Positions 19,712 through 54,663 of a DNA stretch of 64,000 nt are shown in pieces. Within the stretch, counting starts at the first letter, position 1. Every line of letters begins with the position of its first letter. The DNA is from Escherichia phage AV117. The DNA is taken from the sequence record OR352947.1; one strand, 5' to 3'. The position numbers were made by a program, and so were the translations under genes. Below the pieces are notes generated by a model, which did no database searches, was not told the origin of the DNA, and saw nothing but the letters and a program-made list of their open reading frames with translations.

Positions 19712-19762
19712 ACCTCCATTTAAAGATAAGCCTATCATAACACGAGAGGAGGGAATGTAAAC
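19712..19762 (-). promoter_or_regulatory. early promoter upstream of the modB-like gene
   Basis: GTTTAC-N17-TATGAT then GGAGG RBS. Confidence 0.5.
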
Positions 19763-19922
19763 TACTTTTTAAGCTTTCCTACTAAAGGTCCATCAGGTCC
19801 AGGTTGTTCTAACATGAATAAGGATGCTTTAAAAAGCAATGTCAACCCTTTCACCATTCGATACCATATCTCAAAGTCTTTTTCCTTGATTTCTAGTAAG
19901 AATTTCTCTTTAAATTTCTCTT

Positions 19923-20111
19923 TCATTTCCAAGGACTCCATGGTGGAGGGTCGTCATAATAAGAGGCAAGGTCTTTCAGGGCTTCAACAGGTAAACTAAA
20001 GCCGTGACGTTGTATAATACTATCTAGTTCATCAACAAGTTCACTACGATGCACTTTAGGAGCCTCAACTTCGGGCTCATCAAACATACTCATCAAGTCC
20101 ATATTATTCAC
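19923..20111 (-). CDS. hypothetical acidic protein (62 aa)
   Basis: ORF. Confidence 0.4.
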   Translation of the reverse strand: MNNMDLMSMFDEPEVEAPKVHRSELVDELDSIIQRHGFSLPVEALKDLASYYDDPPPWSPWK

Positions 20112-25140: not shown

Positions 25141-25389
25141 TTATTCTTTTTCGCGAATAATAATTACTTGTTGAGTCTGCTGAGCAGATTTCTTTTCGGC
25201 AACGATAGACCAAATTAAAGTTCCAATCCAACCAACCATCGTCCAGTTAAAGAGTAAAGATACAAAGAAGATTGCTGTTGTGCTTTTTGTGCCACGAATA
25301 AGTGCGATTACCCAAGGCAACATGTAAATGATGATTGAACCAATACCTGCGATTAAAACTGCTACTGAACTAGCTACGAATAATTCCAT
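25141..25389 (-). CDS. imm: superinfection immunity protein Imm-like (membrane)
   Basis: 82 aa; LPWVIALIRGTK...IFFVSLLFNWTMVGW...LIWS fits the Imm superinfection-immunity family signature as I recall it. Confidence 0.6.
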   Translation of the reverse strand: MELFVASSVAVLIAGIGSIIIYMLPWVIALIRGTKSTTAIFFVSLLFNWTMVGWIGTLIWSIVAEKKSAQQTQQVIIIREKE

Positions 25390-25404
25390 GTTAATTTCCT
25401 CTTG

Positions 25405-25447
25405 ATTTGTTATGTTTATAATATCTTGTTTTGACTTTGGCGTAAAC
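25405..25447 (-). promoter_or_regulatory. early promoter upstream of the imm-like gene
   Basis: GTTTAC-N18-TATTAT. Confidence 0.45.
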
Positions 25448-25450
25448 CAA

Positions 25451-25819
25451 TTAATTAAATTTGTTTAAACGTTCAATACACTGGACGTAGTTATTTGCGA
25501 TTTGTTTCTGGGTAGGCTCTTTACCGGTTGTTTCAACATAGCGAATGAATGCTATTTCAGTAGCCTGTAGACAATGTTCTTTAACGCGTTGTTCTTTTGG
25601 CAATGCTACAGTATCAGAGTCACGATAACGTTGAGCATGGGCATCAGCTTGAATCATTCGATTACCTACAGTAACCGGGTCTTCCACTTCAACTTTAGGT
25701 TGGTCATACTGTTTAACATTCGGATTGTAAATCAGTTGGCCAACGTTATTAGGGATAAAGCCATGGGCACCACATCCGGTTAATCCAAATACCATTGCTA
25801 AAGCGATTAATTTTTTCAT
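25451..25819 (-). CDS. putative lipoprotein (122 aa)
   Basis: signal peptide with lipobox LTGC. Confidence 0.5.
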   Translation of the reverse strand: MKKLIALAMVFGLTGCGAHGFIPNNVGQLIYNPNVKQYDQPKVEVEDPVTVGNRMIQADAHAQRYRDSDTVALPKEQRVKEHCLQATEIAFIRYVETTGKEPTQKQIANNYVQCIERLNKFN

Positions 25820-25879: not shown

Positions 25880-26092
25880 CTATTTTAAACTTTTGCGAAA
25901 TTTGCGTTTTTCTTGACGAATCTGTCGTTTAGTCGGACGTACAGCAAATTTAACGAAGTCCACTTTGCCATGTGGAAACTTTTCAGATGCTTCACAGTCC
26001 ATCATTAGTTCCCATCCTTCCAGAATAAGAGCTTTCCATTGCGTAGTTGATGCAAATTCGTATGTTGATGGTTTAAACACAGTTGAATACAT
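25880..26092 (-). CDS. small basic protein with C-terminal VRPTKRQIR motif
   Basis: 70 aa; shares the RPTKR(Q/M)(L/I)R..KR motif with ORFs at 53862-54041 and 54466-54663. Confidence 0.45.
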   Translation of the reverse strand: MYSTVFKPSTYEFASTTQWKALILEGWELMMDCEASEKFPHGKVDFVKFAVRPTKRQIRQEKRKFRKSLK

Positions 26093-26093
26093 A

Positions 26094-26306
26094 TTATCCT
26101 CTTAAATCAGCTTCAAAAACTTTCTCGTCATTAACAAATGCTTTAACTAATGCGTTGTTCACTTCAGCAAGTTGTACAGCAACCCACTCAATTTCTTCAC
26201 GGTCACCTGATAACATGATATCTTTAGTGAACATCTCACCGCTTTTAAACCAACCAATAAAAGTAACTTTAGTTAATTTGCTCATATTTCCTCGCAAAAT
26301 GCCCAT
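26094..26306 (-). CDS. dmd: Dmd (discriminator of mRNA degradation; antitoxin vs RnlA/LsoA)
   Basis: start probably MSKLTKV; VTFIGWFK...MFTK.I....D...W...Q.AEVN.ALVKAF..D.KV.E.D.RG matches my recollection of T4 Dmd (60 aa). Confidence 0.8.
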   Translation of the reverse strand: MGILRGNMSKLTKVTFIGWFKSGEMFTKDIMLSGDREEIEWVAVQLAEVNNALVKAFVNDEKVFEADLRG

Positions 26307-26599
26307 TCAGCGTGATAAACTGTAGCACCTTTAGTATCATTCATTTGAACTACATCTACCGGAGAAATTACTCGATAGAGACGTGGTTCACCTCCATAAG
26401 AGCGTGCTGCTCGTCCTGCATAAATCTTTGCTAAACCGATATCTTCAGTAAAGAATACCCGATCCAAGTTTTTCTTACGTCCTGTTTCAGACAGAACTCC
26501 TGTTTCTTCAGGAGGACAAAGCATGTTTTCGATGTTAGCTGAACTACTTGAACCGTGATAAAAAATCTTAAATTCTGCTTTACAATCGATGGTTTTCAT
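26282..26599 (-). CDS. hypothetical protein (105 aa)
   Basis: ORF with GGAGAA RBS and promoter upstream. Confidence 0.45.
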   Translation of the reverse strand: MKTIDCKAEFKIFYHGSSSSANIENMLCPPEETGVLSETGRKKNLDRVFFTEDIGLAKIYAGRAARSYGGEPRLYRVISPVDVVQMNDTKGATVYHAEWAFCEEI

Positions 26600-26607
26600 T
26601 TTGTTCT

Positions 26608-26654
26608 CCAGTAGTTGATAGGTCTATAATAACACAACTACTGGAGAAGTAAAC
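26608..26654 (-). promoter_or_regulatory. early promoter with -10 element flanked by the 10-bp inverted repeat CCAGTAGTTG/CAACTACTGG
   Basis: GTTTAC-N17-TATTAT-AGACCTATC; the first 30 nt are duplicated at 59682-59711. Confidence 0.55.
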
Positions 26655-27029
26655 TTAAAAACGTAATTTAGATACATCTGCGTTGATTTCGCTTTGGTTT
26701 GCGTCGTATGCAATTAAACGAACAGCTTTAGATGGGTCATTCAATGCATAGAAATGATGGAACATTGCTCGAACGATATCACCATTTACGAGTTCTACCT
26801 GGATAGGAGAACCTTTTTCGAGTTGGAAATGTTCATAAGCTTTGATGGTTCGCAGATAATCAAGTTTTTGATTTCCGGCTCCAACAATTTGTACAATACG
26901 TTTGCCCATGTTTTCCATACGAGATACAATAGTTTTAGGAGCAAGAATAACGTAGGTTGCCAGCGGAGAAACTACTTCAACAGTTGTGTTTTCGGTGATT
27001 GCAGTAAAAATTGCTTGAGACATATTCAT
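26655..27029 (-). CDS. hypothetical protein (124 aa)
   Basis: ORF. Confidence 0.5.
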   Translation of the reverse strand: MNMSQAIFTAITENTTVEVVSPLATYVILAPKTIVSRMENMGKRIVQIVGAGNQKLDYLRTIKAYEHFQLEKGSPIQVELVNGDIVRAMFHHFYALNDPSKAVRLIAYDANQSEINADVSKLRF

Positions 27030-53822: not shown

Positions 53823-53851
53823 GATAAACCCTTACCTTAAATAGATAAGGG

Positions 53852-53859
53852 TATTTATA
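53852..53859 (-). promoter_or_regulatory. T4 late promoter TATAAATA upstream of gene 49
   Basis: tatttata on the plus strand about 30 nt before the gene 49 ATG. Confidence 0.6.
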
Positions 53860-53861
53860 AT

Positions 53862-54041
53862 TTAGTAAACGTTATAAAAGTCTCGATGAAAACGTTTATA
53901 TTGGCGAATCATTCTTTTAGTAGGACGTGTTACCGAAATGATTGAAGTCCTCATGTTCGGATTGTTTGGAGCACCAATTATAACAAATTTCCAAGATTTT
54001 TGACCGTTTGTTCTTTCGCCAAAAAATAATGCAGTTTTCAT
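53862..54041 (-). CDS. small basic protein (about 59 aa) with TRPTKRMIR motif
   Basis: MKTALFFGERTNGQKSWKFVIIGAPNNPNMRTSIISVTRPTKRMIRQYKRFHRDFYNVY; AAGGG RBS; below track cutoff; approximate. Confidence 0.4.
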   Translation of the reverse strand: MKTALFFGERTNGQKSWKFVIIGAPNNPNMRTSIISVTRPTKRMIRQYKRFHRDFYNVY

Positions 54042-54050
54042 AATAAGCCC

Positions 54051-54464
54051 TTAACTTAAACGTCTTTCTAAATATTCAATGTATTCCGCTGCGGCTTGCA
54101 TCAGATTACCTTCATAACCGTCATTATTTTCTTGGGCGGCTAATTTAGCTAAAGCATAAGAAATACGTTCACCTTCGAATTCGCCAAGTCCACCATCACA
54201 AACTACTTGGTCAATTTCTTCGAGTTCATCTATTGAATGGGATTCCCAGAAGCACCAAAGAGAAGTATCACGGTCATAGATGCAAAGTTTCTCACCTGTG
54301 TTCAACATCACTTCGATAATGCCATGGTCGCCATAACCATCTTCGGCAGTAGTACCAATTACCTTGATGATCGTATCTTTCTTTAATTCGGGAAACTTAT
54401 CTTGGAGTTCTTCGTCTTCTTTAACAATCTTGAACCATTTACCGCGAGTTTCAGAAATATTCAT
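54051..54464 (-). CDS. hypothetical acidic protein (137 aa)
   Basis: ORF. Confidence 0.5.
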   Translation of the reverse strand: MNISETRGKWFKIVKEDEELQDKFPELKKDTIIKVIGTTAEDGYGDHGIIEVMLNTGEKLCIYDRDTSLWCFWESHSIDELEEIDQVVCDGGLGEFEGERISYALAKLAAQENNDGYEGNLMQAAAEYIEYLERRLS

Positions 54465-54465
54465 A

Positions 54466-54663
54466 TCAATATTCTCTATAAAAGTTACGATGAGAACGTT
54501 TAGCTTTGCGAAGCTGACGTTTAGTAGGACGAACTGTAAATGGTTGTCCAGAGAAAAAATTTGGTTCAGTTTTAATCAACACATACCAATCGTGTTCGCC
54601 GCTTTTTAATAAACGATATAACAATTTAACTTGCATAATAATCTCTTCCAATTTCCAAATCAA
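54466..54663 (-). CDS. small basic protein with VRPTKRQLR motif (start probably MQVKLL at about 54636)
   Basis: paralog of the 53862-54041 and 25880-26092 ORFs. Confidence 0.45.
   Translation of the reverse strand: MIWKLEEIIMQVKLLYRLLKSGEHDWYVLIKTEPNFFSGQPFTVRPTKRQLRKAKRSHRNFYREY

Follow-up and report, generated by a model that had tools for sequence, protein, structure and literature searches.

We analysed a 64,000-nucleotide (nt) stretch of the Escherichia phage AV117 genome (sequence record OR352947.1; "the window" hereafter is this whole stretch), which contains three small open reading frames (ORFs), A, B, and C, related to the phage toxin inhibitor TifA. The region around them is 96–97% identical to vB_EcoM_JS09, pEK20, JN02, and other RB69-like T4-type phages, and the window belongs to an RB69/JS09-type T4-like phage of the genus Mosigvirus. 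The three ORFs and their neighbours lie on the minus strand, at two loci. The first reads, in minus-strand order, nrdC, an RB69ORF091c-like gene, a 49.1-like gene, B, pin, A, gene 49 (endonuclease VII), and nrdD. B (54466..54636; 56 amino acids [aa], RB69ORF089c type) and A (53862..54041; 59 aa, RB69ORF087c type, between pin and gene 49) are short-form TifA paralogs on the flanks of pin (54051..54464), a gene annotated under this name in relatives. Its 137-aa product, the PinA inhibitor of the host Lon protease, is full length: residues 7–137 match positions 2–136 of the 136 in the Pfam profile PF10465, Inhibitor_I24 (expect value [E] 3.8e-47). The spacers are 1 nt between the B stop and the pin ATG and 9 nt between pin and A, and a Shine-Dalgarno-like sequence precedes each of the three genes. 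The second locus reads gene 41, two ORFs, dmd, C, imm.1, and imm. Here, C (25880..26092; 70 aa) is the long-form tifA, the orthologue of gp61.4, and dmd (26094..26285; annotated Dmd in relatives), whose product inhibits the RnlA toxin, is its upstream operon partner.

An earlier note on this DNA had singled out the three ORFs for a hydrophobic middle segment, a basic C-terminal motif, and good ribosome-binding sites. All three exist on the minus strand where it placed them, but the span that it gave for B, 54466–54663, relies on a 65-aa reading from a TTG. JS09, ATK48, UGJNEcP1, and mar005P1 are all annotated with the ATG at 54636 as the start. GGAAGAG precedes this ATG by 6 nt, and starting there gives an 11-nt overlap with the end of the preceding gene; the TTG at 54663 is probably not used. 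The deposited RB69ORF089c is shorter still, at 38 aa from an internal methionine (MLIKTDPNFF...). This annotation probably starts too late, because the 56-aa form is favoured by the pattern of conservation and by all the other relatives with an annotation. Shine-Dalgarno-like sequences do stand ahead of all three ORFs: TAAGGG 6 nt before A, the GGAAGAG of B, and AGAGGA 5 nt before C. The hydrophobic middle segment is also real and corresponds to the second beta strand (a tryptophan followed, one residue on, by a hydrophobic run) in AlphaFold models. A membrane segment was considered for it and ruled out, as it forms strand 2 in confident models.

The C-terminal motif, (V/T)RPTKR(Q/M)(L/I)R..KR, is present in A, B, and C, and it is beyond chance. 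The six-frame translation of the window contains RPTKR three times, for 0.05 expected from 300 shuffles (an analytic estimate gives the same value), and every occurrence sits inside the full motif RPTKR(Q/M)(I/L)R..KR. In C, it is encoded by codons R52–R63 (RPTKRQIRQEKR, 25904..25939), which correspond to the Pro-Thr (PT) helix cap and the basic RNA-binding face. Its alignment partner in A is R39–R50 (RPTKRMIRQYKR, 53892..53927), and the full motif is found again in B at R36–R47 (RPTKRQLRKAKR, 54496..54531). In BLASTP comparisons, A and B are 36% identical over their full length (E 2e-10), and A and C match significantly only across the motif (E 5e-5). All three score well above the curated gathering threshold (24.5 bits) of the Pfam family PF23945, DUF7279: A with 53.8 bits (E 1.8e-14), B with 52.4 (E 4.9e-14), and C with 72.1 (E 3.5e-20). 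A and B match PHROG 3272 (E 2e-30 and 8e-26) and C matches PHROG 2375, and these two families match each other. RB69ORF087c and ORF089c fall in the same protein clusters as A and B. We regard it as practically certain that A, B, and C form a true paralogous TifA/DUF7279 family. When the window and the other 105 kb of JS09 were scanned in six frames with hidden Markov models, no copy beyond these three came up. The same scan of the whole T4 genome returned tifA alone, plus a weak match that led to the tail of T4 pin, discussed below.

The identity of C gives the motif its meaning. C is identical at 70 of 70 residues to a database protein with the RB69 accession AAP75940.1 (RB69 gp61.4), and it is 56–57% identical to TifA of T4 and T2. 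A gap of 1 nt separates it from the upstream dmd, as it does in T4, and its annotation in JS09 is gp61.4. T4 gene 61.4 was renamed tifA, for ToxN inhibitory factor A, in 2022 (Srikant et al., PMC9391042). The suggestion that this family is missing from the T4 gene list thus does not hold: one member is a named T4 gene, the family is curated as DUF7279 and PHROGs 2375/3272, and only the pin-flanking copies A and B are missing from T4 as genes. The dmd and tifA genes form a two-gene early operon, which T4 amplifies about tenfold to escape the plasmid-borne type III toxin-antitoxin system toxIN; TifA of T4, T2, T6, and RB69 neutralises the endoribonuclease ToxN, and RB69-type phages are far less restricted by toxIN than T4 (PMC9391042). 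TifA_RB69 binds RNA of any tested sequence with dissociation constants of 0.36–2.3 uM (Guegler et al. 2023, PMC10853763). Its C-terminal helix has a conserved Pro-Thr cap and solvent-exposed basic residues, and after the substitutions P53A T54A or K55A R56A R59A the protein no longer co-purifies with RNA, neutralises ToxN, or co-precipitates with it. TifA traps ToxN on 16S ribosomal RNA (rRNA), and its potency is tuned by residue 41, which a loop places at the predicted ToxN interface (PMC10853763). Counted along C, the motif reads R52 P53 T54 K55 R56 Q57 I58 R59. This numbering matches that of the published mutants, and the motif is therefore the experimentally defined RNA-binding element of TifA. 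The earlier proposal of a nucleic-acid- or ribosome-binding family was thus a good one as regards the motif, but the role of the characterised member is toxin inhibition and not a housekeeping ribosome function. We consider it highly likely that C is a functional TifA. In the published mechanism, TifA is an early product of the dmd-tifA operon that binds RNA through its Pro-Thr-capped basic C-terminal alpha-helix and touches ToxN with the beta-sheet and loop face. ToxN is thereby locked inactive in a ribonucleoprotein on an abundant RNA, the 16S rRNA, and phage transcripts are left uncut (PMC9391042, PMC10853763).

We compared A and B with the long-form members at the level of residues and predicted folds. 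In an alignment of 17 long-form proteins, W27, P53, T54, R59, and R66 are invariant, and V44, K55, R56, and Q57 are nearly so. A and B keep all of these except V44, which is not among the conserved short-form columns. The AlphaFold2 (AF2) model of A is confident (predicted local distance difference test [pLDDT] 86.6), with strands at residues 2–9, 15–22, and 31–36 and a helix at 42–58. That of C (pLDDT 77) has strands at 2–6, 27–33, and 43–49 and a helix at 55–69, with a low-confidence excursion at 7–26 and a loop at 34–42 that holds H41; its core and excursion agree with the published description of TifA (PMC10853763). B, at 36% full-length identity to A, would share the same beta-beta-beta-alpha fold. 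Where C has the excursion of about 20 residues, A and B link the first two strands by a five-residue turn, and their loop equivalent to that of residue 41, between the second and third strands, is 3–6 residues shorter and lacks the P-(H/F)-G of TifA. Judged from these models, A and B appear to keep the RNA-binding half of TifA and to trim the parts modelled against ToxN. They probably bind RNA, because all the residues shown to be needed for RNA binding by TifA are kept on a confidently predicted helix. Taken jointly, the assignment of A, B, and C to TifA/DUF7279 and the binding of RNA are very probable. Sequence searches of the PDB gave no relative at E <= 1, Foldseek found nothing significant in the PDB (the best match being Pur-alpha, E 1.1) or in BFVD (where the best matches were other uncharacterised phage proteins, E 0.01 or worse), and NCBIfam has no model for A, B, or C.

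Genes as short as these could be decaying duplicates or unexpressed chance ORFs. Besides the length, this would fit the annotation of RB69ORF089c at 38 aa and the lack of A in many relatives. We estimated pairwise ratios of nonsynonymous to synonymous substitution rates (dN/dS, Nei-Gojobori) between the window and JS09, ATK48, UGJNEcP1, mar005P1, and Shf125875. They are 0.04–0.10 for A, with dS up to 0.85, and 0.06–0.21 for B, for which values up to 0.56 arise only with a recombinant hybrid gene; the comparator, pin, gives 0.04–0.25. These values indicate that A and B are real genes under purifying selection. A tblastn search of 50,697 phage records shows how widespread they are. A-type genes occur in 359 records, 54 at an identity of at least 80% and 304 below 60% (50–59% in nearly all of the matches listed), the latter mostly Tequatrovirus in which the gene is beside pin. 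B-type genes occur in 145 records, all RB69-like and all with at least 80% identity, and TifA-type genes in 639. All three types are hence conserved in related phages, by both the record search and the selection analysis, and the lack of conservation that the earlier note had named as a refutation does not apply. Intact ORFs in 145–359 records, from two genera and down to 50–59% protein identity, the retention of every family-invariant residue, a confident fold prediction, and dN/dS of 0.04–0.21 at dS up to 0.85 leave the idea of dead or chance ORFs hardly tenable; decay into pseudogenes in particular is effectively ruled out by dN/dS. An exhaustive HMMER search of 1.84 billion representatives returned 25 clusters at E <= 0.001, and a word-indexed search of large databases returned 16 proteins. 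Because so few proteins and clusters were found, the TifA family appears to be small and restricted to phages. The match to P0018 (1685 aa, 12 stretches) looked strong, but this ankyrin-repeat protein was set aside as noise. As a separate observation, the dS of A between the window and ATK48 (0.68; UGJNEcP1 was compared as well) is roughly sixfold that of pin beside it (0.11), which suggests that A and pin differ in recombination history within 200 bp.

The organisation around pin varies between close relatives. The order B-pin-A is found in the window, JS09, ATK48, and UGJNEcP1 (about 53 RB69-like records; this and the following frequencies are rough, being estimated from 599 matching records sampled at even spacing). 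In mar005P1 (piece L011, 1301–1934), B and pin are present and A is cleanly absent (about 65 records). In Shf125875 (piece L012, 1301–1471) and phiE142, pin is deleted and a single B::A hybrid remains, made of the body of B with the last residues and 3' flank of A (about 30 records). It looks like the expected product of recombination between two direct-repeat paralogs, which would delete pin. Pin followed by A is the arrangement of ESh33, a Tequatrovirus, and T4 has the same arrangement minus a clean deletion of 137 base pairs (bp). Lost with it are the stop codon of pin and about the first 43 codons of A, so that SFSD-R of PinA now runs in frame into MIQQYKRLHQMFYNT, which is how an A-type gene ends. 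As a result, the 161-aa PinA of T4 closes with 16 residues (RMIQQYKRLHQMFYNT) that are an in-frame A-type tail (T4 NC_000866 46897–46950), as seen by comparison with ESh33 (piece L008, 1190–1380) and with positions 53862–53915 of the window. The Pfam PinA domain does not reach into this tail. Read from these alignments, the extra C-terminus of T4 PinA is the fossil of a TifA paralog. In RB33 (piece L007, 679–1377), a fused pin of the T4 type precedes another A, which is intact, and the TTCTTTTTCTGAC junction is duplicated. Accessory counter-defence genes typically show this kind of gain, loss, and fusion between genomes that are nearly identical.

These arrangements bear on whether A and B could be accessory partners of PinA, co-translated with it and helping to inhibit or redirect Lon, a nucleic-acid-binding protease. 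The tight B-pin-A order with its spacers of 1 and 9 nt would suit such a role, as would the adjacency of A-type genes to pin in Tequatrovirus too and the in-frame fusion of an A-type tail to PinA in T4. Against this, the genes assort freely: T4 has pin without a gene for A or B, mar005P1 has B and pin without A, and pin is gone from Shf125875 and phiE142, where a B::A hybrid is left, about 30 records in all appearing to lack pin. Moreover, the Pfam PinA domain stops at position 136/137, short of the T4 tail. A partnership with PinA is, in our assessment, quite improbable.

Another possibility is that A and B are additional inhibitors of ToxN, the toxin targeted by C, and constitute a natural, fixed form of the increase in tifA dosage. 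Extra copies can be selected, as the roughly tenfold amplification of dmd-tifA in T4 under toxIN shows, and RB69-type phages, in which we find all three copies, are restricted by toxIN to a much smaller degree than T4 (PMC9391042). The RNA-binding helix required for ToxN inhibition is also kept in both proteins. However, outside this helix A and B are only 28–36% identical to C, they lack the excursion at 7–26, and their residue-41 loop is shorter. TifA_RB69 alone explains strong ToxN neutralisation, about two-thirds of the Mosigvirus records have no A, and more distant TifA homologs inhibited no ToxN that was tried (PMC10853763). Redundancy with C is thus unlikely. The missing excursion and the shorter loop are the reasons why we infer that A and B do not duplicate the contact of TifA with ToxN.

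A and B could instead be general RNA- or DNA-binding regulators, acting in translation, mRNA stability, or host shut-off, with the helix as an arginine-rich nucleic-acid-binding module. They consist of little beyond a minimal sheet and the helix, and TifA binds any tested RNA, as well as single- and double-stranded DNA, with micromolar to sub-micromolar affinity (PMC10853763). Yet the patchy presence of the two genes among near-identical phages fits accessory counter-defence genes and not core regulators, and the sole characterised member of the family is a specific toxin inhibitor. We hold a general regulatory role to be doubtful, if slightly less so than a second and third ToxN inhibitor.

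In the reading that we put forward, A and B are stripped-down TifA scaffolds, presumably co-transcribed with pin, that more likely aim the RNA-anchored trap of TifA at another partner, most plausibly another ribonuclease (RNase)-type defence toxin or a divergent ToxN. A bolder version, which we rate as rather less likely than not, makes DUF7279 a modular trap, in which the invariant helix would anchor the protein to RNA and the variable sheet and loop would select the target. A and B would then inhibit non-ToxN RNase toxins and B-pin-A would be a second anti-toxin island, in which PinA would block the Lon protease. Lon degrades the protein antitoxins of type II toxin-antitoxin systems. If true, one Mosigvirus carries three differently aimed TifA-type inhibitors. 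The broader statement that A and B inhibit some defence RNase, made by analogy with TifA, seems to us somewhat short of an even chance. Several points weigh against the proposal. The six more distant TifA homologs of the published panel neutralised none of seven toxins tried, and family membership is accordingly no predictor of target; TifA_RB69 also binds single- and double-stranded DNA in vitro, so that A and B may have RNA or DNA as their partner; and the published ToxN-TifA interface is a medium-confidence AlphaFold model, a soft premise for a change of specificity (PMC10853763). Equating the published loop of about 20 aa with residues 7–26 of C is our own reading of the AF2 model. Finally, promoter and terminator scans were run around both loci, and at the pin locus they did not rise above shuffled expectation, which gives no help to the expression of A and B.

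The surroundings of the two loci show further features. The interval between the A stop and the start of gene 49 (53823–53861, minus strand) holds a TATAAATA box at 53852–53859 and an inverted repeat, ACCCTTA...TAAGGGT (53828–53852), just upstream of the gene 49 start. This 40-nt element is 97.5% identical in many Tequatrovirus genomes and annotated as a terminator in ATK48; we take it to be the late-promoter/hairpin control known for gene 49 of T4. Directly upstream of dmd-tifA are two minus-strand ORFs of 105 and 124 aa (26282–26599 and 26655–27029; RB69ORF040c/041c types), neither of which has a Pfam match. The record of one relative, HX01, has "ADP-ribosyl transferase" among its product names for this stretch, not tied to a particular ORF. 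Lying in what the TifA authors regard as a possible anti-toxin island, the two ORFs may be further counter-defence candidates. In the window (25141–25819), imm and imm.1 are directly adjacent to tifA on its downstream side, and sp comes after them. In T4 (19758–20051 and 26373–27013), sp follows tifA, and some 6 kb separate it from imm/imm.1, which are placed between genes 42 and 43. Relative to T4, the superinfection-exclusion genes are rearranged next to the anti-toxin genes in the window.

How much of this was already in print? The family is known, as TifA and as DUF7279, and C is its characterised gene; A and B are new members. The B::A hybrid protein of phiE142 (P0003) corresponds to UniRef accession A0A0U4JDN8. 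Because this accession is shown among the TifA homologs (Fig. 5C of PMC10853763), the short form already stands in the literature as a recognised TifA homolog. The functional panel of that study (Table S2) covers only proteins of 70–98 aa, and the short forms fall outside it (PMC10853763). The word "paralog" and the three copies of RB69 appear in neither TifA paper (PMC9391042, PMC10853763), searches of the literature for DUF7279 and RB69ORF087c/089c returned nothing relevant, and TifA papers from 2024 onward add nothing on paralogs. An Enterococcus "TifA" met in these searches is an unrelated protein of the same name.

Few phage counter-defence proteins are known to glue a host toxin to RNA, TifA among them, and the two naturally minimised copies in RB69-type phages offer a ready-made dissection of what the helix does alone and what the loops add. 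Part of the resistance of RB69 to RNase-based defences is possibly due to A and B. The pin locus also illustrates how paralogs drive genome change, with recombination between A and B deleting pin and a fossil tail left on T4 PinA. A and B are worth taking to the bench, but they will not surprise a specialist and open no new field, since the family is already named.

The closest known system is TifA itself. A and B share with it the Pfam family, the invariant W..RPTKR..R..KR..R pattern, a sheet predicted to have three strands, and the basic helix with its PT cap, and like tifA they lie in early minus-strand gene clusters. They differ in length (56–59 aa, against 70–85 aa for TifA) and in their neighbour, which is pin instead of dmd. 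The classifications DUF7279, PHROG 3272 (the short form), and PHROG 2375 (the long form) together hold all three ORFs, and NCBI names some copies "DUF7279 family protein". None of these entries carries a function, and Pfam gives "unknown function" although the founding member is TifA. Dmd (T4 61.5), which inhibits RnlA/LsoA, resembles TifA in being a small early phage antitoxin; it is encoded immediately upstream, in the proposed anti-toxin island. The two are, however, unrelated in sequence, and according to the cited literature Dmd inhibits by direct protein–protein contact without an RNA cofactor. The RNA antitoxin ToxI and the pseudo-ToxI repeats of phages act on the same toxin as TifA, ToxN, through an overlapping surface: mutations in ToxN that escape TifA also weaken toxI binding (PMC10853763). 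ToxI is an RNA, whereas members of the TifA family are proteins for which RNA is a co-factor. The most distant parallel is the "molecular glue" formed by Vif of human immunodeficiency virus 1 (HIV-1), RNA, and APOBEC3, and, with it, arginine-rich-motif peptides. There, too, a viral antagonist holds a host antiviral enzyme inactive by way of RNA. The contact with nucleic acid is again made by a short basic helix. There is no homology, and the comparison, which comes from the TifA authors, is one of mechanism only (PMC10853763).

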